DNA from: an uncultured Anaerolineales bacterium
GTDB lineage: Bacteria > Chloroflexota > Anaerolineae > UBA1429
Direction of reading: 5' to 3'
Length of the DNA: 64,000 nucleotides
Assembly (NCBI GenBank): GCA_964482225.1
Contig: CAYZWT010000023.1
Span: forward strand, 113-64,112
In this document: positions 3,705 to 49,161 of the stretch, piece after piece
Layout: each line of letters begins with the position of its first letter
Numbering within the stretch: the stretch's first letter is position 1
Program-made: the position numbers and the translations under genes
Notes under the pieces: generated by a model
Seen by the model: the letters and a program-made list of their open reading frames with translations, nothing else
What the model was told of the DNA's origin: nothing
Database searches by the model: none

Positions 3705-5585
3705 ATGCGACGACCAAGACACTGGTTACTAACTCCAATCCTATTGGCCGCCCTTCTATTTGCGGCGAGAGGTCTCTCGCCGGCAAGGGCCGACGACCAG
3801 CAACTCAGAAACGTCCTCCGGGCGCCCGGGGCGCCATCGCAGACATTGCCACTGCAGATATTGCAGGGGCCCTCCGCCCCCTCTTTGGGCACGGCGGAGA
3901 GCTTTGCGGTCTTGGCAGGTTCGACGGCGACCAATACGGGCGACACCGTGATCAACGGCCATCTGGGTGTCAGTCCGGGCAGCGAGGTCACCGGCTTTCC
4001 CCCCGGGATTGTGAATGGGACGAGGTATGAGGCTGATGCGGTCGCGGCTCAGGCCCAGGTTGATCTCGGCCTGGCGTACGACGATCTGGCAGGCCGGGCA
4101 TGCGATCCCAGCGGCAATTTGACCGGTCAGGACCTGGGCGGCCTCACGCTCACGTCAGGCGTCTATTGTTTTGACACATCGGCTCAGTTGACTGGCCTGC
4201 TTACGCTTGATGCTAAGGGTGACTCGGGCGCCGTCTTTGTCCTAAAGATTGGGAGCACGCTCACAACCGCGAGCAGTTCATCTGTTCAGATGATCGGTAA
4301 CGGAAACCCGTGTAACGTCTACTGGCAGGTGGGCAGCTCCGCAACCCTCGGCACAGATACTGCGTTCTCGGGGAATATCCTTGCACTGACGAGTATCACT
4401 CTCAATACCGGCGCCGATATCACAGGCAGCGCCTTGGCCAGAAACGGCGCGGTGACGATGGATACCAATACCATCAGTCTGTGCTCGCCCCTGGCCCCAA
4501 CACCGACCACGACGAGCACCGTTACGCCGACGGTGCCGACCGCACTAACCCCGACCACGACGACCACCGTCACGCCAACAGCGACGACCACCGTCACGCC
4601 AACAGCGACGACCACCGTTACGCCAACCGCGACGACAACCGTCACGCCGACCGCGACGACCACCGTCACGCCAACCGCGACGAGCACCGTCACGCCAACC
4701 GCGACGAGCACCGTCACGCCGACCGCGACGACCACCGTGACCCCGACCGTGACGACGACTGCGACTCCAAGACCGACGGGCGCGCCGACCGCGACCCCAA
4801 TGCCGGCGCAAGCGCCGACGAGCACTCCGGCTACCGGGCTGGCGCCAACCCCAACGCTTGCTCCACTGCTGGTTGGTCTGCCGGTCACCGGTGGCGCTGT
4901 TGCGCAACGAGGAGAGAGGCCCTTCGCTCTGCTCCCCTTTGGGGTAGCTTTGGCTCAGCCCTCGAGTTCGGCGCCGCTTGTTGACCCGAATCTCGACCTG
5001 CGCGCCGGGCCCGTGGACGTGCCGCTCGAACTCTGGATTCCATCACTCGATATCAGCGCCCCAGTGCTCGCGGTCGGGATCACGTCAAAGAATGTGATGG
5101 ACGCGCCGATGGGTCGGTCAAACGACCCCGTGTGGCACACGGCGTTCTGGTATCGCGGCGGGGGCATCCCAGGCGACCCGGGCACAGCGACAATCGCTGG
5201 ACATGTAGACGGCCTGGGCGGACAGCCTGCGCTCTTTGCTCACCTTGGTGATCTCAGACCAGGCGACCTGATCATCGTCTACAACACAGAGAGCGACCTC
5301 GGCGCTCACTTTATAGTCACCGAGATGGAAGAGTTCTCTGCGCGGCAAGCCGCCGCTGATCCGTCAGTTCTCGTGCGGATCTATGGTATTGGCCCCGTCT
5401 CCGGCCGGGGGCCGCAACCGGCACAGGATGGTCTCTCGCATCTGACACTCATTACCTGCAGCGGGGACATTATCCGGGGCTCGTACGAACATCGCTTGGT
5501 CGTCTATGCGCAGCGAGTCGAGGCAACGCCGCAGGAGAGCACAGATGAGATTGGGGGTGTTGCCGGCGAATACCAGCTCGACTGA
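3705..5585 (+). CDS. Secreted multidomain fusion: signal peptide, ice-binding-like DUF3494 domain, Thr/Pro tandem-repeat linker, LPVTG sorting motif, then a C-terminal sortase (class E/F-like) catalytic domain
   Basis: Strong RBS GAGGAGGTGG. Signal peptide MRRPRHWLLTPILLAALLFAARGLSPARA. DUF3494-like AESFAVLAGSTATNTGDTVINGHLGVSPGSEVTGFPPG. TTTVTPTA repeated about 9 times. LPVTGG. Sortase motifs IAGHVD (His), TLITC (Cys) and RLVVYA (Arg). Confidence 0.7.
   Translation: MRRPRHWLLTPILLAALLFAARGLSPARADDQQLRNVLRAPGAPSQTLPLQILQGPSAPSLGTAESFAVLAGSTATNTGDTVINGHLGVSPGSEVTGFPPGIVNGTRYEADAVAAQAQVDLGLAYDDLAGRACDPSGNLTGQDLGGLTLTSGVYCFDTSAQLTGLLTLDAKGDSGAVFVLKIGSTLTTASSSSVQMIGNGNPCNVYWQVGSSATLGTDTAFSGNILALTSITLNTGADITGSALARNGAVTMDTNTISLCSPLAPTPTTTSTVTPTVPTALTPTTTTTVTPTATTTVTPTATTTVTPTATTTVTPTATTTVTPTATSTVTPTATSTVTPTATTTVTPTVTTTATPRPTGAPTATPMPAQAPTSTPATGLAPTPTLAPLLVGLPVTGGAVAQRGERPFALLPFGVALAQPSSSAPLVDPNLDLRAGPVDVPLELWIPSLDISAPVLAVGITSKNVMDAPMGRSNDPVWHTAFWYRGGGIPGDPGTATIAGHVDGLGGQPALFAHLGDLRPGDLIIVYNTESDLGAHFIVTEMEEFSARQAAADPSVLVRIYGIGPVSGRGPQPAQDGLSHLTLITCSGDIIRGSYEHRLVVYAQRVEATPQESTDEIGGVAGEYQLD
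4555..4765 (+). repeat. 24-nt in-frame tandem repeat (accaccgtcacgccaacagcgacg, about 8.5 copies) encoding TTTVTPTA
   Basis: Direct inspection shows near-identical 24-nt units with synonymous wobble changes; it lies inside CDS 3705..5585. Confidence 0.85.
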
Positions 5586-5672
5586 CCATCTATCGAGGGC
5601 GCGGCGCCCTTGGCAAGGCTGGGGGCGCCGCGCAGGCAATAGTTTCTGAGAATTCTGTAAAGGGGATATGAA

Positions 5673-5999
5673 ATGCACGAGCACAACCAGAAGCGTAATG
5701 TCAAGATCCGTGGCGGCAAAGGGTTCTTTGTCGGGCTCGCCGGACTGGTGGCGGGTGGCCTGATTGGCGCCGGGGTGATGCTGCTGTGGGCGCCGCAATC
5801 GGGGAAAAAGACGCGCGACCAGGTCATGCACGAAGGTATAGAGCTGCGAGATCAAGTCGGCGGAATCGTTGATGATGTGGTGGGGCAGACCCGCAGCAGA
5901 GTGAACAAGATCGCGACCGCCGTGCGCAAGCAGGGCAAAAAGCTCGGGCACCAAGGCGAGGACGCACTTGAGCACGTAGTGGCTGCGGCCCAGGCCTGA
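5673..5999 (+). CDS. YtxH-family (DUF948) stress-associated membrane-anchored protein
   Basis: GFFVGLAGLVAGGLIGAGVMLLWAPQSGKKTRDQV is a YtxH signature; RBS AAAGGGGA. Confidence 0.6.
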   Translation: MHEHNQKRNVKIRGGKGFFVGLAGLVAGGLIGAGVMLLWAPQSGKKTRDQVMHEGIELRDQVGGIVDDVVGQTRSRVNKIATAVRKQGKKLGHQGEDALEHVVAAAQA

Positions 6000-6913: not shown

Positions 6914-8227
6914 ATGCTCAAGATTGGCGAGCTGAGCCGTCTGGCGCAGGTCTCGGTCAAGACCCTGCGCTACTATGCTGAGCGCGGCCTGCTGCTGCCT
7001 GCCCATGTGGACCGCTACACCGGCTACCGCTACTATGCCCTGGAGCAACTGCCCCGGCTGAACCGCATCCTGGCCCTGAAGGACCTGGGGTTCACCCTGG
7101 AAGAGATCGCGCGCGTGCTGGGCGAGAACCTCTCGCCGGACGAGCTGCGGGGCATGGTGCGGCTGCGGCAGATCGAACTGGAGCGACGCCTGGCCGAGGA
7201 ACAGGCCCGCCTGACCCGCGTCGAGGCGCGCCTGCGCCAGATCGCCCAGGAAGGCTGCCTGCCCGAGTACCCTGTGGTGCTCAAGGCCGTGGCCGCCCGG
7301 CGCGTGATGGCCCTGGGCCGGCGCGTGGCCGGCTATGGCCAGGGTGCGGCGCTGGTGCGGCCGCTACTGGCTCGCTTGCAGGCCGTCGGGCTGCCGACGC
7401 CGGCCGCCGGCGCCATCGTAACCGTGTATCGCGAGGATGCCGATGGCGCCGGTCTATGGGCCGCGACAGGGGCGTCGCTGGAGCGCATACCGGCGCCCCA
7501 TGGGCTGGGCGGCGAACTCGAGATCCTCGCGCTTCCGGCGATACCCGCTCTGGCCTGCGTCATCCACCAGGGGAGCCATGACGCCCTCGGCGACGCCTAT
7601 GGCGCGCTGCTGAGCTGGGCGGCCCCCAACGGCTATCGCGCCAACGGCCTCGTGCGCGAGGTCTATCTGCGGGGGCCCGAAAGCGACGCGCCGCCTGAGG
7701 AGTATGTGTCCGAGGTGCAACTGCCCGTCGCGAGCGTATTGGCCAACATGGATGTCCGAAGAAAGGAACAACTCATGCACCCCAAGATCGAGACCAAACC
7801 GGCATTCAGCGTCGTGGGCCTGGTCTATCACGGCAAGAACGAGCACAGAGAGATCCCGGCCCTGTGGGATCAGCTCAACCCGCGTTGGGGCGAGCTCTTG
7901 GCGCTGGGCGATATGCGCGGCTGCTATGGCGTGTGTGACGCCGCCATGGATGAGACCGGCTTTGACTATATGGCGGGCCTCGACCTGGGACCGCTGGCCC
8001 AGGCGCCCGAGGGCATGGCCATCTGGCAAGTGCCCGAGGCGACCTATGCCGTCTTTACCTGCACGTTGCCCACCATCGGCGCAACCCACGACTATATCCA
8101 CAACACCTGGCTGCCCAACTCGGGCTACCGCCGGGCGCCGACGCCTGACCTGGAGCTCTACCCTGAGACGTTCGAGCCCGGCGATCCCGAGTCCGAGATG
8201 TATATCTATATCCCCATCATCCGCTAG
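6914..8227 (+). CDS. MerR-family transcriptional regulator with C-terminal GyrI-like (AraC-E-bind) effector-binding domains
   Basis: N-terminus MLKIGELSRLAQVSVKTLRYYAERGLL is a MerR HTH, followed by a coiled coil. C-terminus HPKIETKPAFSVVGLVYHG...YIYIP is GyrI-like. Confidence 0.8.
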   Translation: MLKIGELSRLAQVSVKTLRYYAERGLLLPAHVDRYTGYRYYALEQLPRLNRILALKDLGFTLEEIARVLGENLSPDELRGMVRLRQIELERRLAEEQARLTRVEARLRQIAQEGCLPEYPVVLKAVAARRVMALGRRVAGYGQGAALVRPLLARLQAVGLPTPAAGAIVTVYREDADGAGLWAATGASLERIPAPHGLGGELEILALPAIPALACVIHQGSHDALGDAYGALLSWAAPNGYRANGLVREVYLRGPESDAPPEEYVSEVQLPVASVLANMDVRRKEQLMHPKIETKPAFSVVGLVYHGKNEHREIPALWDQLNPRWGELLALGDMRGCYGVCDAAMDETGFDYMAGLDLGPLAQAPEGMAIWQVPEATYAVFTCTLPTIGATHDYIHNTWLPNSGYRRAPTPDLELYPETFEPGDPESEMYIYIPIIR

Positions 8228-9260: not shown

Positions 9261-9372
9261 GCTGAACCCCTCCCATGTAGAGCGTACATCGCACGATGAT
9301 GGGCGGATTATAGCCATGCTCGCGGGTGCAGGTCAAGGAGAAGGTGTGCTCGGGGCGGGCAGGCTGCCCGAG

Positions 9373-9400
9373 TTGCGCGCGCGTCCAAATGCGCTACAAT
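9373..9400 (+). promoter_or_regulatory. Sigma70-like promoter (TTGCGC-16-TACAAT) driving the cobalamin riboswitch leader
   Basis: -35 at 9373-9378 and -10 TACAAT at 9395-9400. The same GCTACAAT -10 also occurs at 15606 and 21636. Confidence 0.45.
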
Positions 9401-9419
9401 AGGCGCGTCAGTACAATCG

Positions 9420-9660
9420 TCTGGTCCGGTCGTGGTGCCCTGTTGGCCCGGATGCCCAGGGTGAAAAGCGAAGCCGGTGCGAGTCCGGCGCTGTCCCGCA
9501 ACTGTGAGCGATCCCGTATCGCAAGCCAGGTCGCCTGCCACGTTCCGTACGCGCCATGCAGCAGACCCTCGAGCGAAGGGTCGGCGCGATGCATACCGCT
9601 GGCCCCTGTCTCATGGGGGCGGCGGCGCCACGCCGAGCCCGAGCCGGCGTGTTTTTTGTT
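9420..9660 (+). ncRNA. Cobalamin (B12) riboswitch with a terminator-type expression platform
   Basis: Core GGTGAAAAGCGAAGCCGGTGCGAGTCCGGCGCTGTCCCGCAACTGTGAG matches the RF00174 core. B12-box-like GCCAGGTCGCCTGCC at 9525-9539. Terminator hairpin cacgccg-agcccgagc-cggcgtg plus TTTTTTGTT at 9629-9659. Confidence 0.6.
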
Positions 9661-9726
9661 GCCGTGGGGACGGGGCGTGGGCGGGCATCCTGGGCTCTCA
9701 GTGCGCAAAAGGAAAGGAGCCCGTCC

Positions 9727-11038
9727 CATGTCTCGTTTGCAGAGTGCTATCCCCTCAGGGCGAAATGCCCGTCTGCTTGGCGCGCTCATGGCCGCGCTGC
9801 TATTGATCGTAGCATTGGGCGCGGCCTGCGCCCGCCCGGCGCCCAACACCGCCCATGTTGTCATCCAGTTTGCCGATGGCCAGACCCATCTGCGCACCAT
9901 CTCTTGGTCTGGCGAGCTGACGCGCGTCCAGGCGCTAGAGCTGGCGGGCTATGCCGTGGCATCGGACGCCGCCGGCGAGGCGATCTGCAGCATCGCGGGC
10001 CAGGGCTGCCCCGCCCAGGATTGCTTCTGTCCCGCCAACCTTTGGGCGCAGGGCCAGTGGGATGGGGAGGGCTGGAATGGCGAGGCCTGGCCGCCGCCCC
10101 CCGTGCAGGCGGGTGACCTGATCGCCTTTCGCCTGGGCGTCCATCCCGACTACTCGGACTGGGGCCTGGCGGGCCATCTGGCGGATGCTTCCGGCTATCT
10201 GGCGGCGGACCGCGCGCTAGAATGGCTGCGCAGCCAGCAGGGACCCGATGGCGGCTATGACGACGGCCTGAATCCCGTGGGCGCAGCCGTGCGCTCGCTG
10301 CTCGCCCTGGGCGCTGCCGGATATGAGCCTGCCGCCTGGGGCAGCCCCAGCCTGGATGCGTACTTGACCCAGAGCGCCGCCAGTGACGTGGTCGCCTATG
10401 CGGAGAGCTCGGCGGCCGCCTCGGGCAAGCTGGCCGTCGCCGTTGCCTGGGCGGGCCAGAACCCAGCTTCGTATGCCGGGCTCGATCTGCCCGCTCTGAT
10501 CGCGGGCACCTTTGATGCGGCCACGGGCGCCTATGGAGGCGGCAGCGGCGATACCGCTTGGGCTGTGCTGGGCCTCTATGCCGCCGGCCAGCCGATCCCG
10601 CAGCGTGTGGTCGCCTTTTTCGAGGGCTCTCAGTTGGGCGATGGCGGCTGGGCGTGGAACGAGATGCAACCTCAAGGTGAGGTTCAGCATACGGCGGTGG
10701 TCATCCAGGCGTTGCTGGCCGCCGGAGCGCCCCGCGATGGCGACGCTATCGCCCGAGCGATGGCATTCGTGCGGCAGACGGCCAACCCCGACGGCGGCTA
10801 CCCCTACCAGGCGCCGGGGGAGAGCGATCTCGGGAGCACCGCCGCCGTGATCCAGGCGCTGCTGAGCGTGGGCGCAGTGGGCGACGATGCCGAAGCGCTG
10901 GCCGCCGCACAGCGCTATCTGCAGAGCCAACAGGATGCCGATGGCAGTCTGCGCGCCTGGTCGCCCCTCTATGCGACCCAAGAGTGCCTCCCGGCTCTGA
11001 TGGGCCGGACGTTCGGGCCGCTGGCCGGAGGGCAGTAG
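9727..11038 (+). CDS. Secreted protein: N-terminal DUF4430-like (transcobalamin beta-domain-like) module fused to a prenyltransferase/squalene-cyclase-repeat alpha/alpha toroid
   Basis: RBS AAGGAG. Signal/TM LLGALMAALLLIVALGAACA. GCPAQDCFCP motif. Repeats SQQGPDGGY, QTANPDGGY and SQQDADGSL. The 9326..9726 part of the ORF-track call is rejected as upstream read-through across the riboswitch. Confidence 0.65.
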
Positions 11039-11040
11039 CC

Positions 11041-11535
11041 ATGTCGCTGCGTCATATCGGGCTGCTCGGCCTCTTGCTCTATAGCCTGCTGGCTTGTGCG
11101 CCACAACCGACCGGTCAGGCGCCCATACAGGTGGGCCTCGTTGTGCAGGAGGGTGAGGGGAGCGTGCAGACCTATTGCGTCACGCTGGATATGCGCGACC
11201 CCAGCGGATACGACGCCCTCATGCTGGCGGGGCCGCCGGTGCAGGCGTTGGTCTCGGCGCAGGGCGTGGCCGTGTGCCAGATCGGGGAGGTGGGCTGCCC
11301 CACGGGCGATTGCTTTTGCCGGTGCCAGGGCTCAACGTGCGACTACTGGGCTTACTCCCACCTGCGCAACGGCCATTGGCAGACCGCTGCCACGGGCGCC
11401 GGCGGACGCCGCCTGAGCCACGGCGATGTAGAGGGATGGCGCTGGGGCGGCGGCTCGCCGCCGCCCGTGATCGACTTTGAGGAACTCTGCGCGCCGGGGG
11501 GCCAGGCCGCAGGCGCGCAGAGCGAGCGCCCCTAG
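11041..11535 (+). CDS. DUF4430-domain lipoprotein (putative cobalamin-binding beta-domain protein)
   Basis: ATG overlaps the upstream stop (TAGCCATG). Lipobox LLAC. GCPTGDCFCRCQG...DYWAYSHLRNGHWQTA is a paralogue of the N-terminus of the upstream protein. Confidence 0.6.
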   Translation: MSLRHIGLLGLLLYSLLACAPQPTGQAPIQVGLVVQEGEGSVQTYCVTLDMRDPSGYDALMLAGPPVQALVSAQGVAVCQIGEVGCPTGDCFCRCQGSTCDYWAYSHLRNGHWQTAATGAGGRRLSHGDVEGWRWGGGSPPPVIDFEELCAPGGQAAGAQSERP

Positions 11536-12392
11536 ATGCGCCCGTAGGCCCGCAGGGTTGTCAGCGCCGCCAGGGTGCGGTGGGCGCGCCAGGCCAAGGC
11601 CGCCGTTTCGCCGGGGGGCTCCCAGGCGATGGGCCAGCCGCCATCGGGTTGCTGCTGGGCCAGCAGGTCGTCCAGGTGCGCCTCGATCTGCTCCTGGCCG
11701 AACAGCCTCCGGAGGTAGCTATCGGGCGTGGGCGCCAGGTGCAGGGGCGTCAGGCCATAGCCCGAGATCGGCGCCTCGGCCAGGAAAAAGCTGGCCCGTG
11801 TAAGCTCGTCGGCCAGCCTGTCGAACAGCGCGCTCACATCCCGGGTCTCGGCGACGCTTTCCAGCAGGCAAAAGCCGTTCTGGATGGTGTGGGCATCCTC
11901 CATAGGGAGTCTTGCCAGGTGGGCGAGGCAGGCCCCCACAGCCCGCTCTAGCCAGGGGTGCTCGATGCGCTGCCAGTTGAGCAGCCCCACCAGGCTGATG
12001 AGCCGGTCCAGCGAGGGCTCCCGAGCGGAGGGGGCCTCCCAATGGGGCGCATGGTCATAGGCCAGCGCCGAGGGGAACAGGGTCGGAATGCCCGCCTCCA
12101 GGTCTGCGTGCTGCGACAAAAAGATGCAGGCGCCCTGGGCCAGGTCGGGCGCCCGCAACCCACAATCGTATAGGGTGCGCAGGCCGAACTCTAGATAGAG
12201 GGGTTGGCTCTCGGGCGCCCGCAGGTCGGGCTCCAGGGCGTGGCCCAGGCCGCCGTCGAGGTTCTGATAGGCCCGCAGCGCCAGCGCCACCCGGCCCGGC
12301 GCCTCGCCCTCCAGAAGGTGCGCCATGACGGCGCGCTCCAGCAGGCGCCCGTGTCGCCAGATGAAACGTTTGCCCTGCTCCAAGATCGTCAT
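11532..12392 (-). CDS. Prenyltransferase/terpenoid-cyclase-like alpha/alpha-toroid repeat protein (hypothetical)
   Basis: QQQPDGGWPIAWEP repeat motif. Convergent with the DUF4430 operon, with overlapping stops. Confidence 0.5.
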   Translation of the reverse strand: MTILEQGKRFIWRHGRLLERAVMAHLLEGEAPGRVALALRAYQNLDGGLGHALEPDLRAPESQPLYLEFGLRTLYDCGLRAPDLAQGACIFLSQHADLEAGIPTLFPSALAYDHAPHWEAPSAREPSLDRLISLVGLLNWQRIEHPWLERAVGACLAHLARLPMEDAHTIQNGFCLLESVAETRDVSALFDRLADELTRASFFLAEAPISGYGLTPLHLAPTPDSYLRRLFGQEQIEAHLDDLLAQQQPDGGWPIAWEPPGETAALAWRAHRTLAALTTLRAYGRI

Positions 12393-13560: not shown

Positions 13561-15387
13561 CTAGGATGACTTGCCCACGATCGGATCAGGACGCAGGCTA
13601 TCGCCAGGGCCCGGGACCACAGGCGCGGGCAACTCGGGCCCGATCACCGGCAGTGACGGCGATGCGATGGGCTTTTCCGGCTTGACGGGGCCAGGCAGCG
13701 GAACGGGCGCGCTGCGTGGCTCTGCCACAGGCCGGCAGCCCTCCTGGCCAGGGGTGCACGGCACAGGCGGGTTGGGAACGATGGACGCGCCCGGCGGCGG
13801 CACGATGGAGGCGCTGTAGACGGCCTCTACCGGGCCATAGTCCTCATAGCCGCCTTGCAGGTCATAGGCGCGCAGGTAAAAGAGAGCCCCTACGGCGATA
13901 TCGGACCGGTCAGCCTGGTAGTAGTACTCTGACCCGGTTGTGAACCCTTGGGTGGGGATAAATGCCTCGTTGATCTGGATCATCTCGCCGCCGCCGGGCT
14001 GGACGGCGAACAGGTCAAAGCCCCGGTTGTCGGCCTCGTAGCCCGTGGTCCACATGAAGCGCAGGGTGTCGTTGTCTCGCAGCGTCTCAAAGCTGGAGAC
14101 CGTCACCGCCGAAGGGACAACGGGAAAGCCATAGAAGCCGGCGTCCAGATCCAGGTAGTTATCGCCCCAGTTCAGGGTGACGGTCTGGGTGCGCCCGGTA
14201 ATGGGGTCGGCGTCGCTATCGAGGGCGTCAGGGCCCGCATCTTGGAGGGTAAAGAAATAGGCAAAGTAGGGATCAACGGGCACTGCAAAGACCACGTAAT
14301 AGTCGCCAGCATCGAGCCCGTCAAAGAGATAGTAGCCGTTGGCGTTGGTAGTGGTGGTGGCAACGAACGTGCCGTCGCCCCTGTAGAGGGTGACGCTCAC
14401 CCCGGGGATGCCGGGCTCGCCGGCACCCTGGATGCCGTCAATGATCTGTTCGAACCAGACATAATCGCCCAGGCTGGCCTTGGCCACGTAACCGGCGTCC
14501 AGATCCAGGTAGCTGTCGCCCCAGTTCAGGGTGACGGTCTGGGTGCGTCCGGTGTCGGGATGGGCGTCGCTATCGAGGGCGGGGTTTTGGCCGCTGTGCT
14601 GAGACGTAGGGGAGTAGGCAAAGGCGGCATTGTCTGGCGGCGCAAAGATGACGTAATAGCCGCCAGGAGTGAGACCATCGAACAGATAGTAGCCGTTGGC
14701 GTCGGTGGTGGTGGTCTTGAGCAGGTTGTCGTTGGCGTCATAGAGCCGTACCGTCGCGCCTTCGATGCCGGGCTCGCCCTCGTCCTGGATGCCGTCAGAG
14801 TTCTGATCGAACCAGACATAATCGCCCAGGCTGGCCTTGGCCACGATGGCGCAGACGAGCGAAGGGCCGGGGATCGTCCCGGTCTGAAAGCTGGGCCCGG
14901 CCTTGGCGGCCAGGGTAATGTCGCCCACAGCATAGTTGCCATTGACCGTAAAGTAGTAGTACTTGGTCTGGCCGTCATCAAAGCCTTGGTTGAACTTGAG
15001 CCCGGTCGTGTTCGTGGTGGGGTCTCGTTTGGGTCTCGCCGGAAAGCTACTGGGCTCGGGGGCGCCCTGGCCCGGGTATAGCGTGTTCATATCCATGTTT
15101 ACGCCGTCCCACAGACCTGCGCCGAGGATCCTGATGTCAGGGCATGTCATCTGAAAGACAACATGGCTGAGGGCCGGGCTGCGCCCCGAGGTGACTTTGT
15201 AGTACCAGGTGGAACGCCCGGCGACGGGGTAATCGTAGCGGACGCCGTAAAAGGTCGCACTGTGCGACCCAATGGAGACCGTTGTCTGCGCGCCCACGTT
15301 GGGCGCCGCCCACAAAACGACGCTGGCGAGGATCGCCAGCGTAAGCAGCATCCTGGGCCACACGCGAGCTGCATGATTGGTTTGCAT
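13561..15387 (-). CDS. Secreted cell-surface protein with two SdrD B-like (Cna-B type) repeats and a Pro-rich C-terminal tail
   Basis: Signal peptide. Two copies of LGDYVW(F)DQNSDGIQDEGEPGI.G.TV.LY..G....TTTT.ANGYYLFDGL. C-terminal PPVPCTPGQEGC...PVPLPGPVKPEKP. Confidence 0.7.
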   Translation of the reverse strand: MQTNHAARVWPRMLLTLAILASVVLWAAPNVGAQTTVSIGSHSATFYGVRYDYPVAGRSTWYYKVTSGRSPALSHVVFQMTCPDIRILGAGLWDGVNMDMNTLYPGQGAPEPSSFPARPKRDPTTNTTGLKFNQGFDDGQTKYYYFTVNGNYAVGDITLAAKAGPSFQTGTIPGPSLVCAIVAKASLGDYVWFDQNSDGIQDEGEPGIEGATVRLYDANDNLLKTTTTDANGYYLFDGLTPGGYYVIFAPPDNAAFAYSPTSQHSGQNPALDSDAHPDTGRTQTVTLNWGDSYLDLDAGYVAKASLGDYVWFEQIIDGIQGAGEPGIPGVSVTLYRGDGTFVATTTTNANGYYLFDGLDAGDYYVVFAVPVDPYFAYFFTLQDAGPDALDSDADPITGRTQTVTLNWGDNYLDLDAGFYGFPVVPSAVTVSSFETLRDNDTLRFMWTTGYEADNRGFDLFAVQPGGGEMIQINEAFIPTQGFTTGSEYYYQADRSDIAVGALFYLRAYDLQGGYEDYGPVEAVYSASIVPPPGASIVPNPPVPCTPGQEGCRPVAEPRSAPVPLPGPVKPEKPIASPSLPVIGPELPAPVVPGPGDSLRPDPIVGKSS

Positions 15388-32203: not shown

Positions 32204-35200
32204 CTACGGTTGCACCTGAAAGATCAGCCCCTCGGTGCGGCCAAAGACGTCCGGCTCGTACATCTGATAGGCCAGCGCCGGCATCACCCGGAAGAAACCG
32301 GGCGTTGTGCAGCGCAGTTGATACTGGAACTCGTAGGTGCCCCGGGCCAGCTCGGTGGCAAAGAGCACCAGTTTCTCGTCGCGCAGCTCGGTATGGGTGG
32401 GCCAGTGGGTGAACCACCACAGGTCATAGTCCCACTCGGCCTCGATCACGGGCCGCAAGCCCGCATCCATCTCGTCCACGCGGCGCGTGGTGGCCAGGCT
32501 GGGGTCAATCCCCTCGCACCCGGCAGGGTAAGCGTCCTCCAGCACCAGATAGTAGACATCGCGCGGCGCGATCAGCGTCAGCTTGACGTTGACGATGTCG
32601 TTTACCCGCGCGGCGGTCACCGGCTCGTCCGGACGATCCGCCAGGGCGTGCTCGCGATAGACGATCACGCCCCGATCCAACGGCTGGATCTGCTCGATGG
32701 GCAGATAGTACTGTAGGAACGCGCTATAGTAGAGCCGCCCGGGGGCGTCCCCCGGCTGGCGCTCGATCACGACATAGCTATCCTGACCCTGGGCCAGCTC
32801 CTCGATGGGCACATTGGCCGTGACCTGCTGGCCCACCGTGGCGGGCGTCACCTGCCCGGCTGCCTGCTCGACCCCGTCCACGCTCAGGCTGTAGGCATAG
32901 TTCGCCTCTAGCTCGCCCGTGGCGACCATGACGTCCGTCAGCGCCAGGATGGCCCAGACGTTCTCCTGGGTGGTCTCCCAGCGGCCCGTGGAGCGCGCCA
33001 TGGTCAGCCAGCGCACGGCCTGTGGCAGCAGGGCCTGCTCCGGGTCCATCCAGACCAGGGCGCGCAGCACCAGGGCGCTGGTGCGCGTATCGGTGCTCAT
33101 CTGCCAGGGGCTGTGGCGCTCCTCTTGCCAGCTCATGCCCGTGGCGCTGAGCAGCGCTGCGTCCACCAGCTCGTTCTCCAGGATGCCCACGCGGGCCGGC
33201 TCGTCCGGCTCTAGCAGGCGCAACGTCATGCCCAAGTAGGCCTGGGCAAAGAGCGAGAGCTGGCCGCGATCCTCGAACAGGGCCACGGCGCGCCCCAAGT
33301 CGCCCTGGCCTGCCTCGGCCAGCGCATAGAGCACCGCCGCACGCGTGTCATAGTGATCCTGGGTGACGGGGCGCGTGCTATCCAGCCAGTTGTACAGGTA
33401 CTCGACGGCGCGATCCACGCTGCGGGCATCCACGATGAACCCTGCCTCACGGGCCTGGGCCATGCCGAACAAGGCATAGGCCGTGATCAGCGGCGAGCTC
33501 TCCGAGGCAGCCCACCAGCCCCAGCCGCCATCGTTGCCCTGCAAGGTATAGAGACGTTGCAGCCCGATGGCCACCTGTTGCGGCAAGCGCGCCGCCAGGT
33601 CCGGATCCTCCAGCCCCAGGTCGCGCAGCGCCCGGAAGGTGGCCACGTTGGGCAGAAAGCGGCTGACGGTCTGCTCGACGCAGTCGTAGGGGAAAGCCTC
33701 TAGGTAGTCGAGTCCTTCACGCATGGCCGCTGCCAGCGAGGGCTCCAGGTGTACGGTCAGCCCACCCTGGCGCGACATAACGTCTTCGGGCAGCCGCAGC
33801 GCCTCGATGACGCGATCCTGCACCTGGCCCGCCGTGCCCACCACCTCGGGTGTGCTGGCATGGTAGACCGGGATGCTGATGCGCGTGGCATCGTGGTGGC
33901 CGCCGCCCTGGGCGCTGTAGGTGAGTACCACCTCATCCACCGGCGCCACTGTTGCAGGCCACTGGACGGTTTGGCGGCCGCCCGCCGGCACGGGGATCGT
34001 CTGCTCGGCATTGAAGAACATCAGCCCGATGGCCTCCAAGGTCACCTGGATATCGAGATCGTCGTCGGTGTTGTTGTGGATCACGGCGCCCAGGGTCGGC
34101 TCGTCATCTATGACCATAAAGCGCGGCGTCATGGGCCGGATCATGATCGCCAGGCTGCTGACGATATCGGTCTGGCCGCGGCCCACCAGGGTCTCTTCCG
34201 TCACCGCCTGAGCGGTCATGCGCCAGGTGGTCAGGTTATCGGGCAGCGTGACGCTGACCGTAGCCGTTCCGTCGGTGCCGGTGCGCACCGAAGGCAGCCA
34301 CAGGGCCGTATCGGGGAACTCGGTGCGGAGACCCTCGCCGCCATCGCCGCCGCCGCCGCCCTTGCCGTCCTGGTCGGCGGCATCGGGCGCCTCAGGGGCG
34401 CGCCGGCGCGTCAGCGAGAGGGCCGTGTTGACGGCCAGCCCGCGCTCGCCGTAAAAGGCGGCCACGATATCAGGGGGCGCGCCGCCCACCAGACTCTCGA
34501 CGGCCAGGTCCACCATCTGCACAGCCACCTCGGCCTGGGCCGGGCGCCCGGCATAGTCGCGCACCTGGATGGTAAAAGTCGCCTCGTCGCGCGGCTGATA
34601 GCCGGCCTGCTTGTCAGGCGTGATGGTCACCTCGAGTTCGCGCTGCTCCGGCGAGACGGTGAGCATGACATAACCCAGGCGAAAGCCCGGATCGCGCACG
34701 TCCTCGCCCATGCCGCGTACCAACACCACCGAGACAAAGACGTTGGGCGCGTACTCGGGCAGGATCGGCAGGTCCAGCAGCTCGCTGTTGCTCTCCAGCT
34801 CGATCAAGCGGTATTCCAGGATGCCGCCGCGCTCGATGGTCAGCAGCGCCGTCACCGGCCCCGCAAAGGGCGAGGGGATCAGGATCGAGGCCGTATCGCC
34901 GGGGGCATAACTCTTTTTGTCCGCCACCAGCTCGATGCGGTTGTTGTCCTGCTGGCCCCAGTTGATGAACGCCGTGTCGCTGACCCAGACATAGAGGGCG
35001 CTGCGCACCTGGTTACCGGCGTCATCGGCGGCGTTGGCGGTTACCTTGTAGGCGCCGCCCTCGCGCGGCGTAAAGGTCAGCCGCGCCTGGCCGCGAGCGT
35101 CGGTGAGCACCGTCTCGGTGTGCACGGGCGTGCTGCGCACCTGGTTCTCCCAGTAGTAGTTGCCATCGGCGCCGCGCACCTGGACGCTCAGCCACTCGTG

Positions 35201-38086
35201 AAGCGCTACCACCAGCTCTACCGTGCGGCGCGCCAGAGGCTCGCCCTGGGTGTCCACCGTCAACACGCCGATGCCCAGGGGCTCGTTGGCCGTCCCCACA
35301 TAGCTCTCGGCGGTCAGGCCGACGTATAGCCCGCCCTTGTGTACGATGGCGGCGGCCTGGCCGGTGACCTCCTGGTTGTTGACGTCCACCACGGACATCT
35401 GGACCGTCAGCATGCGGCTCTGGAAGCCCTGGAGCTCGGTGGGCACGGTGATGGTCAAGCGTCCGTCGGCGTCGGTGCGCCCGCGCCCCTCGGTCAGCAG
35501 GCCCAGGTCCAGGGTGCGCGCCTCGGCGTCGTCATAGTCATAGTCGCCAAAGCTGTACCAGCCCTCGCCCTGGTAGCGATCGAAATAGTAGGGCGCGCCG
35601 AACACGCGCCAGAGCACGTCCGCATCGGACACAGGGCCGCCAAAGTAGAACTCGGCTGCCACCTCGGCCTGCATCGGCTCGCCTGAGACGTACTCGGCCT
35701 GGTCCAGACTGGCGGTCACCTGAAACTCGGGGCGGCGATACTCGGCCACCTGGAAAGGCGCCTCGAAATACTGCTCGCCGTAGGTAAAGATCAGGACATA
35801 GTAGCCCAGGGCGGCGTCGTCGCCCAGGAGCACCTGGCCATCCAGCGAACCCACATCGTTCAGCGTCAGGGTGTCCTGCCACACCTCGCGCCCCTGGCTG
35901 TCAATCAGCATGACGCGCACGGGCGCATCGGTGGGGGGCAGGCTGTAGCGCACATCGTCATCGGCCCGCAGGAAGCCTTTGTAGTAAACCGTCTGGCCGG
36001 GCCGATAGATGCGGCGCTCGGTGTAAAAATAGCCGGTATACTCTTGCACCTCCCAGGCCACGGGCAGGTTGTAGAACCAGGGAGCGATGCCGTCGCTCCA
36101 TTGGTTCTGGGCTGCGCCGATCTCGTCGCCCGCATAGGCGATGGCCAGGATGCTCTCCCAGCGCCCCTGCTCGGGGACCGCCAGGGTAAGCAGGCCATCG
36201 GCATCGGTGCGCCCGCGATCCACCTCTTGCCCGGTGGCGCCATAGAGCACCACCTCCACATCCGCCAATGGTTGCCCGTCCTGCAGATCCGTGACCCACA
36301 CCAGCGCCTGGTCGGGCGCCGTCTTGAGGGTCACATTCATGGGCGTCACCACCAAGATATGGTGCTCGGAGCGGCTCACCTCGGGGGCCGTTGCCCGCAA
36401 TACATAGATGCCCGAGGGCAGCCGTTGCGGCAGATCGGGCGCCAGGCGGGTGGTTAGGGTGCGCGTCTCGTTCAGCGCGCCCGTGGCCCGCTGCGACCAG
36501 GACGCGATCAGGTCTTGCGGCTGCGCCCGGAAGCGATCCCAGTTGGGCCAGCCTCCTTCTTGGGTCAAGTTCAGCAGCCCTTCGGGCGAAAGCTCGAACA
36601 GCTCCAGGTCAACCCTCGAGATGTTGACGTACCGCACAGAGATGCTGTCATCCGTGTACGAGTTGTACACGCCCACCGGCCCCTGGGTCACCAGGCTCAG
36701 GGATGGTTCCGTGGCGCGGGTGACAAAGCCCAAGACAAACTCTTCCGACAGCGCCTCTCCAAAGCGGTCCAGCGCCTCGGTCGAGATGGTCAGGGTATAG
36801 CGGGTCGAGGGACGCAGGGAGGTCGAGACCCACAGCTCGGTGTCGTCGTACTGCCAGAACGTGTAGGTGCTGACAGTCGGGGTGATGGTAAGAGCCTTCT
36901 GGACGGCCTCGCGGTCCATAGGCGCGGAAAAGTTGATTTGCACCGATTGCCAGAGGTCCACGCGGGTGGCCCCTTGAGCAGGGCTGGTGCGCGTCACCCG
37001 GGGCAGGGGTGCCACCTGAAAGCGCCAGGCGTCATCCTGGGGGATGGTGGCCTCGCCCTGGGCGGCATGTGCACCGGCGGCCAGCCGGATCACGTACTCG
37101 GCGCCGCGCAGCAGGGGCTCATCGGGCGTAAAGCGCAGTGAGAGGTCCTGCCAGGAGAACGCGCCCGCCACGGGCTCGCCCGAAGGCGCCACGGCAAGCT
37201 CAAAGCGTTCCTCCACCGTCGCAGCATCCATCTCCTGGTTGAACATGAGCGTGATCTCGGCGGCGGGATCCACCAGGGTCGCCTGATGGAGAGGATAGAC
37301 CGCCACGACGGCGGGCGGCTGGGTGGCAAAGGACCACTGGTAGCCCTCGTCCAACAGGGCGCCGCCGGCCTCCAGCCCAGTCGCCACCACGGCGGTATAG
37401 GTCGTCCCCGCCAACAGACGCTCGGCGGGCGTAAAGCGATAGACAGATGTATTCACCCAGACGCCCTCGCCCGGCACCGCCGGGCTCAGGGCCAGCGGGT
37501 TCACCAGCTCGCTCTGCTCCCGGATCGCCGTCAGGGGCACCACGGGGCGGTTGAACACCACCGTGATCTGGGAGGCGGGGTCTACATTCTCGCTTTCGGG
37601 CCGGGGGAACACGTCCGCCACCTCGATATAGCCCACGGTGCGAAAGCGAAAGGCGATCTCGCGGGCCAGTTCGAGCCGTGTGGTGGACATGGCCGATGCG
37701 TCTACTGTGACGCTATAGACTTGATCGCGCTCCCAGCCATCAACCGGCGCAAAGCGCATCGTGTCGTCGGCCGGCCAGGTGACGCTGCCCGCGACCTCGG
37801 GCGAGAGGCGCAGGGCCGCCTCGACGCTGGCGCGATCCATGGGCTGATCGAACACCAGTTCCAGGGCGCCATCCAGGGCCAGTTCCTCGCCCGAGGCGGG
37901 CGATTGGCCCAGCAGGCGCGGGGGCAGTGGGGGCAACGGTGTGCTGGTTGCCTCCGGTACGGCTGTCGGCGGCAGCACCACCTCCAGCGAGGGCACAGGC
38001 GTCGGAAGGGGCTCGCCCGTCTGGCAGCCCGTCAAGACGCCGAGTAGGAACAACAAGCCCAGCGCGAAAACCAGGGTACGTTTCAT
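32204..38086 (-). CDS. Bacterial alpha-2-macroglobulin (YfhM/ECAM-like), 1960-aa lipoprotein with an intact thioester motif
   Basis: Lipobox LTGC; multiple MG/Big-like domains; thioester CVEQ (FPYDCVEQTV); C-terminal A2M receptor-binding-like domain. Confidence 0.85.
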   Translation of the reverse strand: MKRTLVFALGLLFLLGVLTGCQTGEPLPTPVPSLEVVLPPTAVPEATSTPLPPLPPRLLGQSPASGEELALDGALELVFDQPMDRASVEAALRLSPEVAGSVTWPADDTMRFAPVDGWERDQVYSVTVDASAMSTTRLELAREIAFRFRTVGYIEVADVFPRPESENVDPASQITVVFNRPVVPLTAIREQSELVNPLALSPAVPGEGVWVNTSVYRFTPAERLLAGTTYTAVVATGLEAGGALLDEGYQWSFATQPPAVVAVYPLHQATLVDPAAEITLMFNQEMDAATVEERFELAVAPSGEPVAGAFSWQDLSLRFTPDEPLLRGAEYVIRLAAGAHAAQGEATIPQDDAWRFQVAPLPRVTRTSPAQGATRVDLWQSVQINFSAPMDREAVQKALTITPTVSTYTFWQYDDTELWVSTSLRPSTRYTLTISTEALDRFGEALSEEFVLGFVTRATEPSLSLVTQGPVGVYNSYTDDSISVRYVNISRVDLELFELSPEGLLNLTQEGGWPNWDRFRAQPQDLIASWSQRATGALNETRTLTTRLAPDLPQRLPSGIYVLRATAPEVSRSEHHILVVTPMNVTLKTAPDQALVWVTDLQDGQPLADVEVVLYGATGQEVDRGRTDADGLLTLAVPEQGRWESILAIAYAGDEIGAAQNQWSDGIAPWFYNLPVAWEVQEYTGYFYTERRIYRPGQTVYYKGFLRADDDVRYSLPPTDAPVRVMLIDSQGREVWQDTLTLNDVGSLDGQVLLGDDAALGYYVLIFTYGEQYFEAPFQVAEYRRPEFQVTASLDQAEYVSGEPMQAEVAAEFYFGGPVSDADVLWRVFGAPYYFDRYQGEGWYSFGDYDYDDAEARTLDLGLLTEGRGRTDADGRLTITVPTELQGFQSRMLTVQMSVVDVNNQEVTGQAAAIVHKGGLYVGLTAESYVGTANEPLGIGVLTVDTQGEPLARRTVELVVALHEWLSVQVRGADGNYYWENQVRSTPVHTETVLTDARGQARLTFTPREGGAYKVTANAADDAGNQVRSALYVWVSDTAFINWGQQDNNRIELVADKKSYAPGDTASILIPSPFAGPVTALLTIERGGILEYRLIELESNSELLDLPILPEYAPNVFVSVVLVRGMGEDVRDPGFRLGYVMLTVSPEQRELEVTITPDKQAGYQPRDEATFTIQVRDYAGRPAQAEVAVQMVDLAVESLVGGAPPDIVAAFYGERGLAVNTALSLTRRRAPEAPDAADQDGKGGGGGDGGEGLRTEFPDTALWLPSVRTGTDGTATVSVTLPDNLTTWRMTAQAVTEETLVGRGQTDIVSSLAIMIRPMTPRFMVIDDEPTLGAVIHNNTDDDLDIQVTLEAIGLMFFNAEQTIPVPAGGRQTVQWPATVAPVDEVVLTYSAQGGGHHDATRISIPVYHASTPEVVGTAGQVQDRVIEALRLPEDVMSRQGGLTVHLEPSLAAAMREGLDYLEAFPYDCVEQTVSRFLPNVATFRALRDLGLEDPDLAARLPQQVAIGLQRLYTLQGNDGGWGWWAASESSPLITAYALFGMAQAREAGFIVDARSVDRAVEYLYNWLDSTRPVTQDHYDTRAAVLYALAEAGQGDLGRAVALFEDRGQLSLFAQAYLGMTLRLLEPDEPARVGILENELVDAALLSATGMSWQEERHSPWQMSTDTRTSALVLRALVWMDPEQALLPQAVRWLTMARSTGRWETTQENVWAILALTDVMVATGELEANYAYSLSVDGVEQAAGQVTPATVGQQVTANVPIEELAQGQDSYVVIERQPGDAPGRLYYSAFLQYYLPIEQIQPLDRGVIVYREHALADRPDEPVTAARVNDIVNVKLTLIAPRDVYYLVLEDAYPAGCEGIDPSLATTRRVDEMDAGLRPVIEAEWDYDLWWFTHWPTHTELRDEKLVLFATELARGTYEFQYQLRCTTPGFFRVMPALAYQMYEPDVFGRTEGLIFQVQP

Positions 38087-48276: not shown

Positions 48277-49161
48277 ATGCAAGAAAAGAGACTCACCATG
48301 ACCCAGAACGCCATCGTTGCCGAGAACCTGGTCTATCGCTACGGCCACCTCACGGCCGTGGACGACATCAGCTTTGCCGTGGCCGAAGGCGAGATCCTCG
48401 GCTTTCTGGGGCCCAACGGCGCCGGCAAGACCACCACCGTGCGCATGCTCACCGGCCAATCCAGGCCCCACGGCGGGCGTGCTCTTCTATTGGGATTGGA
48501 CGTGGCCCGCGAGACCGCCGCCGTCCAGGCCCAGATCGGCGTCTGCTTCGAGGTCGCCAATCTGTATGAGCAGATGTCCGCCATCGAGAACCTGGCCCTG
48601 TTCGGCAAGCTCTATGGCGTGCGCGACCTGGATGTGGACGCGCTGCTGCGGCGGGTGGGGCTGGATGGCCGGGGGCGCGACCGGGTGGCGGGCTATTCCA
48701 AGGGCATGAAGCAGCGCCTGATGGTGGCGCGGGCGCTGGCGCACCGGCCGCGCATTCTCTTTCTGGACGAGCCCACCGAGGGGCTGGACCCTGTCTCTGC
48801 CGAGGCGATTCGCAACCTGGTGCTGGAGGAGCGCGCTCGGGGCGTTACTGTGTTTCTCACCACCCATGACATGCTAGAGGCGGACCGCATCTGCGACCGG
48901 GTGGCCTTTATAAACCAGGGGCGCATCGCCGCCCTGGATACGCCCCACAGCCTCAAGCAGCGCTATGGCGCCCGCGTCATCGAGGCCCAGGTCCAGGGCG
49001 CCGGGGGCGCGTTGGAGACCCGCCAGATCGTGTTGGACAAGCCCGAGACGCCCGAGGCCGTGCAGGCGTTGTTCAGCCAGGAACAGGTGGTGACTATCCA
49101 CAGCCGCGAGGCCAGCCTGGAGGACATTTTCATCCGGACCACCGGGCGAGGGCTGGCATGA
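48277..49161 (+). CDS. ABC transporter ATP-binding protein (ABC-2/DrrA-like)
   Basis: GPNGAGKTT Walker A; LSGGMKQRL-like YSKGMKQRL; LFLDEPT Walker B. Confidence 0.85.
   Translation: MQEKRLTMTQNAIVAENLVYRYGHLTAVDDISFAVAEGEILGFLGPNGAGKTTTVRMLTGQSRPHGGRALLLGLDVARETAAVQAQIGVCFEVANLYEQMSAIENLALFGKLYGVRDLDVDALLRRVGLDGRGRDRVAGYSKGMKQRLMVARALAHRPRILFLDEPTEGLDPVSAEAIRNLVLEERARGVTVFLTTHDMLEADRICDRVAFINQGRIAALDTPHSLKQRYGARVIEAQVQGAGGALETRQIVLDKPETPEAVQALFSQEQVVTIHSREASLEDIFIRTTGRGLA

Follow-up and report, generated by a model that had tools for sequence, protein, structure and literature searches.

The question raised by this locus is what a cobalamin riboswitch may control when the genes behind it encode two apparently exported proteins and no transporter. 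The locus lies at positions 9,373 to 11,535 of a 64,000-nucleotide stretch of a metagenome contig whose closest genomes are Anaerolineae; this whole stretch is called the window below. It consists of a riboswitch leader, a first gene (gene 1) for a protein that combines a beta-grasp domain with an alpha/alpha toroid, and a second gene (gene 2) for a small cysteine-rich beta protein. A preliminary description of the sequence had compared the pair with a two-part transcobalamin that captures vitamin B12 outside the cell; both folds were found to be present, with the domain order reversed in gene 1. We consider it rather probable (roughly 0.7) that the operon is a B12-repressed extracytoplasmic corrinoid-capture module for an energy-coupling factor (ECF) importer, and that it is unlinked from that importer in this organism. 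We infer this function from the gene context in relatives, and corrinoid binding, the division of labour between the beta domains and the identity of the transporter in this organism are likewise proposed. Cobalamin or cobinamide would be trapped, in a transcobalamin-like manner, by the beta and toroid domains of the gene 1 protein, and the gene 2 protein would take part either in this capture or in the hand-off to a CbrT-like S component. Such an S component would be encoded elsewhere in the genome, probably with a shared ECF module.

A short-form cobalamin riboswitch heads the operon

The covariance model RF00174 matched the plus strand at 9416-9556 over the full model (positions 1-189) with 66.9 bits (E 2.5e-14), well above its gathering score of 31.5 bits, and this match was the sole riboswitch of the 64-kb window. 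Both elements on which the claim of a cobalamin riboswitch had been built were found in the sequence, the aptamer core GGTGAAAAG...GAGTCCGGCGCTGTCCCGCAACTGTGAG at 9460-9509 and the B12-box-like GCCAGGTCGCCTGCC at 9526-9540. It is clear from the alignment that GCCGGUGCGAGUCCGGCGCUGUCCCGCAACUGU and AGCCAGG...CCUGCC fit the RF00174 consensus with high posterior probability, and they were invariant across five orthologous leaders. The aptamer of the window is short (about 141 nucleotides, nt), with 6 nt standing in for 60 peripheral model positions (90-149). Among cobalamin aptamers, those that lack the peripheral extension tend to favour cobalamins whose upper ligand is small. In the Actinomycetota loci described below (L013-L026), the aptamers were mostly full-length, approximately 170-195 nt with scores of up to 105 bits, as compared with about 141 nt in the window and its close relatives; those of L013 and L015 were partial RF00174 matches only.

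A possible promoter with the hexamers TTGCGC and TACAAT precedes the aptamer (Table 1), and this candidate scored under the criteria of the promoter scan. Near the leader, the scan returned only a divergent site on the minus strand at 9336..9307 (TTGACC, 18 nt spacer, TATAAT; 11 of 12), which is strong and sigma-70-like. This site faces away from the riboswitch operon, toward a gene for a zinc-type alcohol dehydrogenase, and because of it the shorter 320-amino-acid start of the dehydrogenase gene is favoured.

A conserved terminator follows the aptamer

An intrinsic terminator with a 7-bp stem and a T-run had been read from the leader. It proved to be real, with a stem of 7+2 base pairs (bp) that includes a bulge, and it was conserved in three orthologous leaders. 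The hairpin CACGCCG(A)GC-CCGA-GCCGGCGTG (also written with the 3′ arm GCCGGCGUG) occupies 9629-9651, and the U-run TTTTTTGTT (also written UUUUUUGUU) lies directly 3′ of it at 9652-9660. The fold energy of the hairpin was -16.9 kcal/mol, which was unexceptional against shuffled sequences (z -0.45) in this GC-rich DNA, the G+C content of the leader being 67%. The pattern scan for promoters and terminators did not list this terminator because of the bulge. Since the folding z-scores of leader, platform and hairpin were all unremarkable, the support for the terminator comes from conservation. Stem and T-rich tail were kept in the orthologous leaders L085, L086 and L088 with one G-C to G-U change, and the more distant ortholog L087 had a different hairpin and T-run in the same location. 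The sequence of the first of two spacer hairpins (Table 1) was also kept in L085, L086 and L088.

Predicted folds suggested how ligand binding could be coupled to termination. In the minimum-energy folds of both 9416-9642 and 9416-9665, the 5′ strand of helix P1 (9420-9437) was paired with 9620-9642 and not with the P1 3′ strand; when the ends were slightly shifted, the state with closed P1 and terminator became the minimum, at near-equal energy (-108.6 vs. -109.3 kcal/mol). Such an alternation between P1 and terminator likely represents the classical layout of an OFF-switch that acts via transcription termination. Cobalamin bound to the aptamer would close helix P1, upon which the terminator would form and transcription would end ahead of gene 1; without the ligand, the P1 5′ strand would pair with the 5′ arm of the terminator and permit read-through. 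Of the OFF-switch that the preliminary description had put forward, the aptamer and the conserved terminator are established, while the antiterminator is a candidate that predicted folds suggest.

Gene 1 combines a beta-grasp domain with a toroid

Gene 1 begins with the ATG at 9728 and not at 9727 as given earlier, whereas the coordinates and motifs previously reported for the two genes were otherwise correct, including GCPAQDCFCP in gene 1 and GCPTGDCFCRCQG...YWAY in gene 2. The AGGAG of its ribosome-binding site was conserved in the leader alignment. At its N-terminus, the gene 1 protein has a positively charged stretch, a hydrophobic helix (residues 12-32) and Cys34 within LGAAC, a non-canonical lipobox; Cys34 was retained in the closest homologs, and in the homolog P0013 the lipobox is canonical (LIGC). 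The gene 2 protein starts in the same manner, with positive charges, a hydrophobic helix and the cysteine of LLAC, and most of the gene-2 homologs instead have a C-terminal hydrophobic anchor with basic residues after it. These features suggest that both proteins are exported and tethered on the outer face of the membrane.

The beta-grasp domain that follows the signal region carries four invariant cysteines (C87, C94, C99 and C101). BLASTP aligned this domain with the gene 2 protein at 32% identity (E 2e-8), the profile of the gene 2 family (A1) hit it with 52.2 bits (E 2e-14), and its order of strands and helices was that of gene 2. Gene 2 and the N-terminal domain of gene 1 are paralogous, which bears out the DUF4430-like module that had been placed there.

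The remainder of gene 1 exceeded the Pfam cut-offs for SQHop_cyclase_C and SQHop_cyclase_N (toroid repeats PF13243 and PF13249), in agreement with the earlier reading of a toroid, and Pfam found nothing in gene 1 beyond these squalene-hopene-cyclase-type repeats. The AlphaFold 2 (AF2) model of the protein had a mean predicted local distance difference test score (pLDDT) of 91.6 and a predicted template modelling score (pTM) of 0.86. In class II terpene cyclases, an acidic motif of the DxDD type holds the catalytic acid, the proton donor. The residues of gene 1 that align with it (DVED in the structure 8zg1) are EVQH (residues 318-321), and Q320, H321, T322 and A323 (QHTA) were invariant in 22 homologs. 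Gene 1 was also considered as a terpene cyclase, and this candidate was rejected with the acidic motif replaced by EVQH and an export signal present; from these residues, it is unlikely that the toroid acts as a cyclase.

In total, 78 homologs of gene 1 were found. PF01122 matched neither of the two proteins and one of the 39 homologs searched (E 0.0055), and the gene 1 family profile retrieved no transcobalamin, intrinsic factor or haptocorrin chain from the PDB. The toroid fold is shared with transcobalamin, and membership of that family cannot be claimed. Among the NCBIfam models, the best match of gene 1 was SCO2321_fam (NF053823) with 40.4 bits against a cut-off of 300, and it covered residues 319-388 only. 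In some Anaerolineae, the first gene of the pair was longer, about 750 amino acids (L089, 6001-8241; L008, 7800-10109; L009, 7788-10115), and these proteins (P0050-P0052) apparently have two toroids following the beta domain.

Gene 2 represents a cysteine-rich branch of the beta-grasp fold

Gene 2 is coupled to gene 1 and starts 2 bases after the stop codon of the latter, with GGAGGG located within the 3′ end of gene 1. As the end of gene 2 overlaps with a gene on the opposite strand, the operon has two genes. Eight cysteines are invariant in gene 2. Across 158 family members, cysteines were lost pairwise only, C95 together with C100 in seven sequences and C46 together with C150 in one, and the domain of gene 1 retains precisely the four cysteines outside these two pairs. 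Loss in pairs only points to disulfides, which fits an extracytoplasmic protein. The cysteine-rich insert was also considered as a metal or cobalt-ligand site and judged unlikely to be one in view of the pairwise loss, less firmly so for the four invariant cysteines.

The preliminary description had assigned DUF4430 (PF14478) to both proteins, and this assignment held in one respect and failed in another. The HMMER search with PF14478 was negative, as detailed below, with a model that works in this setting: two proteins of the Actinomycetota locus L017 reached 46 and 53 bits against the gathering score of 23.8 bits. Pfam matched gene 2 to no family, and PDB sequence searches with gene 2 and with its profile retrieved no transcobalamin chain. 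On the other hand, fold comparison showed that gene 2 has the beta-grasp fold of the transcobalamin clade, and hhalign of the profile A1 against 12 canonical DUF4430 proteins gave a probability of 95.8% (E 8e-9) over 74 aligned columns. In that alignment, the motifs W-x-Y/F...NG, GA and GD-x-x-W corresponded, and GCPxxDCFCRCQGxxC appeared as an insertion. The DUF4430 assignment of gene 2 is valid solely at the level of fold and of profile-profile alignment.

By sequence, the curated family that fits gene 2 is SCO2322 (PF28005). The sole NCBIfam match of gene 2 was SCO2322_fam (NF040672), with 22.9 bits (E 8.8e-5) and a curated cut-off of 85. Orthologs of gene 2 (39-57% identity) carry PF28005, the precomputed Pfam entry of the identical protein P0001 is empty, and the neighbours in L085 and L090 are annotated PF28005:SCO2322. 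A profile built from gene 2 and its homologs retrieved 4061 cluster representatives, and for 972 the match was at E<=1e-30. When 10 representatives were sampled, nine had any NCBIfam match; SCO2322_fam was included in all nine and was the only match in six. Some members of the SCO2322-profile family are fused to a toroid, on either side.

Relatives keep the riboswitch and link the pair to ECF transporters

Relatives of the pair were collected with a narrow alignment (A3); weaker matches from Acetobacteraceae, Acidobacteriota and others, mostly to the cyclase-like repeat only, were left out. At all orthologous loci, an SCO2322-type gene lies directly 3′ of the beta-toroid gene. A cobalamin riboswitch on the same strand was present upstream in every Anaerolineae-type locus with enough upstream DNA, about 10 in number (L005/L088, L007, L008, L009, L011, L085, L086, L087, L089 and L090); that of L009 was not seen at first and was obtained with 36.9 bits in a permissive scan. 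In Actinomycetota, the riboswitch heads a longer operon at 13 of the 13 loci with a toroid homolog.

The preliminary description had noted that no transporter gene adjoins the pair and had suggested a hand-off to a transporter encoded elsewhere. The first point extends to the whole window, where the only ABC (ATP-binding cassette) system found was of the ABC-2 type at 48277-51292, about 37 kb away. The second is backed by the gene order of relatives, by gene fusions and by adenosyltransferase genes. In L090, the genes that come after the pair encode an ECF S component, CbiQ/EcfT, EcfAA′ (a double ABC ATPase) and a PduO-type adenosyltransferase. The same S, T and AA′ genes follow the pair in L091, whose gene 1 is 49% identical and whose operon ends in a CobA/BtuR adenosyltransferase, and they also follow it in L007. 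In L008 and L089, the gene-2 domain and the ECF S component were found in one polypeptide of 735-820 amino acids. The operon of L017 contains the two canonical DUF4430 genes mentioned above, CbiQ/EcfT, a double ABC ATPase and a fusion of a toroid with a DUF6580 domain, which is S-component-like.

The linked S components matched PF12822/PF07155 and not the cobalt-specific CbiM/CbiN. For the S component of L090, the sole PDB match was a 182-residue membrane-protein chain of the ECF-CbrT structure 6FNP, a weak match (E 0.0019) to a chain that is presumably CbrT. The bare pair with no transporter neighbour was found in the window and in its nearest relatives L005/L088, L085 and L086. The pair also stands alone in L087, where an S-component homolog belongs to a divergent cobT-cobS-cobU operon with its own riboswitch. 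A single intergenic region of L087 contains two divergent cobalamin riboswitches, at 5249-5492 on the minus strand and 5629-5810 on the plus strand, one serving the capture pair and the other the divergent operon (ECF S homolog, cobT, cobS, an AP_endonuc_2 gene and cobU).

In both phyla, the system has two beta domains, one toroid and one S component, fused in various ways. The chances appear even to us that a large clade of ECF systems uses such a tethered "split transcobalamin", made of one toroid and two beta-grasp domains with SCO2322 as the beta subunit, and that this device acts in trans and under its own short-form riboswitch in the present Anaerolineae lineage.

Evidence against the proposed function and alternative explanations

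Several observations weigh against corrinoid capture for an ECF importer. No homolog of an ECF S or T component was found anywhere in the 64-kb window. The riboswitch alone does not fix the ligand, because B12 riboswitches commonly control cobalt transporters as well. The authors who described a homologous split toroid/beta pair of Lactobacillus sakei connected it with heme uptake (bioRxiv 10.1101/864751). PF14478 gave no match to gene 1 or gene 2 at E<=1, nor to any of 39 homologs of gene 1 at E<=0.1. Both by structure and by sequence, the toroid is nearer to terpene cyclases than to the alpha domain of transcobalamin; the cooperation of toroid and beta domain in ligand binding is therefore argued by analogy. 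As for the switch, the antiterminator is drawn solely from predicted folds, the four close leaders offer no covariation, and the folding of the whole leader was no more stable than that of shuffled sequences.

The most serious rival is cobalt capture, because B12 riboswitches also stand before cobalt importers and the relatives have T and A components of the CbiQ/CbiO type. The pair would then capture cobalt or another metal for B12 synthesis as an accessory to a CbiQ/CbiO-type importer, and its repression would reflect that cobalt is needed at low B12 only. Besides the CbiQ-family T components and CbiO-like ATPases that adjoin the relatives and the cobalt transporters that B12 riboswitches commonly precede, this explanation can draw on the cysteine-rich nature of gene 2 and on a bacterial DUF4430 structure, 3u7z, deposited as a "putative metal binding protein". 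However, the linked S components belong to PF12822/PF07155, with a weak match to the 6FNP chain, and not to CbiM/CbiN, and the operons end in corrinoid adenosyltransferases, enzymes for imported corrinoids. Both folds are also those that sandwich B12 in transcobalamin, and the pairwise loss of the cysteines is disulfide-like and unlike a metal site. Metal capture is considered unlikely on balance.

A different possibility is that the proteins do bind corrinoids and hoard or withhold B12 at the cell surface, in competition or for storage, with no delivery. This would explain why the pair stands alone in the window and in the closest relatives, and both proteins appear to be tethered to the cell. 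Repression by B12, on the other hand, suits acquisition under scarcity, and the same proteins are fused to an S component in relatives. Unlinking does not mean independence either, because the S component of L087 merely sits in the neighbouring divergent operon. We regard hoarding as quite unlikely.

Capture of heme or another non-corrin tetrapyrrole, as proposed for Lsa1839/Lsa1840 of L. sakei, is very unlikely here. The lsa1836-1840 operon, which comprises ECF, toroid and beta genes, was tied to heme uptake on genetic and docking grounds, with heme docked at the modelled interface (bioRxiv 10.1101/864751), but this claim of binding is docking only. In the present family, about 24 riboswitch-controlled loci and the linkage to cobU/cobS/cobT and adenosyltransferases point to cobalamin, and no heme-related gene or regulator is adjacent to the pair.

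That the toroid is an extracytoplasmic enzyme (terpenoid-cyclase/prenyltransferase-like or glycan-acting), with the beta domains as accessories and an indirect link to the riboswitch, is hardly credible: it is most similar to class II terpene cyclases in sequence and structure and many alpha/alpha toroids are glycoside hydrolases or epimerases, but the DVED position of 8zg1 is EVQH with QHTA invariant in the family, identity to glycosidases is only 7-12%, the conserved fusion or linkage with beta domains and ECF S components would make no sense for an enzyme, and the export signal would put isoprenoid diphosphate substrates out of reach.

Features of the locus and neighbouring genes

The features of the riboswitch operon are collected in Table 1.

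Table 1. Coordinates in the window of the leader elements, genes and protein domains of the riboswitch operon.
Feature	Position	Strand	Basis
Possible promoter: TTGCGC, 16 nt spacer, TACAAT	9373..9400	+	read from sequence; weak, not established
Cobalamin riboswitch aptamer, short form	9416..9556	+	RF00174
P1 5′ strand of aptamer, candidate antiterminator partner of terminator 5′ arm (9620-9642)	9420..9437	+	predicted folds
Two spacer hairpins of the expression platform	9564-9582, 9598-9623	+	predicted folds
Intrinsic terminator: 7+2 bp stem, bulged A, CCGA loop, U-run	9629..9660	+	fold, conservation
Ribosome-binding site AGGAAAGGAG, 8 nt ahead of ATG 9728	9710..9719	+	read from sequence
Gene 1, 436 amino acids: signal peptide or probable lipoprotein, SLBB domain, alpha/alpha toroid	9728..11038	+	translation, AF2, Pfam
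Gene 1 N-terminal signal/anchor, residues 1-34	9728..9829	+	sequence
Gene 1 beta-grasp (SLBB, DUF4430-like) domain, residues 38-137	9839..10138	+	BLASTP, profile, strand/helix pattern
Gene 1 alpha/alpha toroid, residues ~150-430	10175..11017	+	Pfam, AF2 model
Gene 2, 164 amino acids: probable lipoprotein (LLAC, Cys19), one cysteine-rich transcobalamin-beta-like domain, SCO2322-type	11041..11535	+	translation

The gene convergent with gene 2 (11532-12392, minus strand) encodes a protein of 286 amino acids, with a 4-nt overlap between the stop codons of the two genes. This protein lacks an export signal, matched nothing in Pfam or the PDB and contains two toroid-like Q(Q)xxDGG(W) repeats. It is probably outside the system, because, apart from the same organism, only the nearest relative (L086) has it alongside the pair. 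Upstream of the operon, 3705-5585 on the plus strand encodes a protein of 626 amino acids in which an ice-binding-like domain (PF11999, 212 bits) is joined to a C-terminal sortase domain (PF04203), an unusual fusion. A MerR-family regulator of 437 amino acids fused to a GyrI-like/Cass2 effector-binding domain (6914-8227, plus strand) lies just upstream of the divergent dehydrogenase gene. Further genes on the minus strand encode a 608-amino-acid surface protein with SdrD B-like repeats (13561-15387) and an open reading frame of 1960 amino acids (32204-38086).

Significance

Cofactors of the B12 type have few microbial makers and many users, so that capture proteins shape access to them in sediments, digesters and guts, and Anaerolineae are abundant in sediment, digester and gut-type habitats. 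If corrinoid capture for an ECF importer is correct, SCO2322/PF28005, which comprises more than 4000 sequence clusters with no assigned function, and its SCO2321-like toroid partner would gain a testable role. For corrinoids, the notion that ECF importers dispense with a binding protein outside the cytoplasm would then need revision. A bacterial ancestry of animal transcobalamin, intrinsic factor and haptocorrin was proposed in 2007, and a second branch, highly divergent from the first, would be added to it. SCO2322-type proteins escape the current PF14478 model altogether.

Comparison with known systems

In comparison with transcobalamin, intrinsic factor and haptocorrin (2bb6, 2pmv and 4kkj; PF01122 and PF14478), the beta domain of gene 1 (38-137) precedes the toroid (150-430). 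The order is thus reversed relative to the animal proteins, yet both orders occur in bacteria (also PMC1796856). The window adds a second, free beta domain on its own gene, probable membrane tethering and an extra disulfide-rich insert, GCPxxDCFC(RCQGxxC). The pair has no sequence match to PF01122 or to PDB transcobalamin chains, and its toroid is nearer to terpene cyclases.

The nearest curated families are those of SCO2321 and SCO2322 of Streptomyces (NF053823, NF040672 and PF28005), with scores far under the cut-offs (40.4 vs. 300 and 22.9 vs. 85). SCO2321 bears the name of a membrane protein, whereas the only anchor of gene 1 is N-terminal and gene 1 has a beta domain of its own. Judged from the consecutive locus tags SCO2321/SCO2322, toroid and beta protein are probably paired in Streptomyces as well. 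Our literature search found no paper on the SCO2321/SCO2322 families.

ECF transporters are textbook ABC importers without binding proteins, and to our knowledge ECF-CbrT is the only characterised ECF importer of B12. ECF-CbrT of Lactobacillus delbrueckii imports vitamin B12 and cobinamide (6FNP; Santos et al., 2018, eLife, PMC5997447) and operates without an extracytoplasmic binding protein (PMC5997447). The relatives of the pair carry S, EcfT and EcfAA′ together with an adenosyltransferase of the PduO/BtuR type, and the cbrT cluster likewise has pduO (PMC5997447). The window differs in that it encodes the accessory proteins only and no S, T or A component.

BtuF captures cobalamin and cobinamide with high affinity outside the cytoplasm for an ABC-type importer and is often under a B12 riboswitch. 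The role proposed for the pair is shared with BtuF, while the fold of BtuF, a class III substrate-binding protein, is unrelated and serves a type II ABC importer and not an ECF importer. Neither window protein matched BtuF in the Pfam, NCBIfam and PDB searches. Affinities of BtuF are cited in PMC5997447.

In the Lsa1836-1840 system of L. sakei, a toroid and a separate beta protein occur with an ECF transporter and were modelled as a heterodimer on haptocorrin/transcobalamin (bioRxiv 10.1101/864751). Its authors assigned heme uptake and report no riboswitch, whereas the window has a beta-toroid fusion and no ECF genes.

The closest precedent is the description of bacterial transcobalamin-clade SLBB domains, secreted or anchored, by Burroughs, Balaji, Iyer and Aravind (2007; Biol Direct 2:4, PMC1796856). 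They reported that the SLBB domain is fused to a toroid, which may come before or after it, that its operon contains a second paralog and that CbiO/CbiQ genes are linked to it, and they predicted scavenging of B12 or its precursors. The capture design was already predicted there and is not new as an idea. The window shares with that set the surface beta-grasp domain, the toroid fusion and the second paralogous beta gene in the operon. On the other hand, its proteins belong to the cysteine-rich SCO2322 (PF28005) subfamily that PF14478 does not see, they come from Anaerolineae, the pair lies directly behind a riboswitch, which the 2007 study never mentions, and there is no transporter linkage in the window. 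No paper that ties the SCO2322/PF28005 branch to B12 was found in our literature search. What is new here is a very divergent, disulfide-rich branch (SCO2322, PF28005) that stands consistently behind a cobalamin riboswitch, its fusions with S components of ECF systems, and a lineage where the pair has become a riboswitch-controlled unit of its own.

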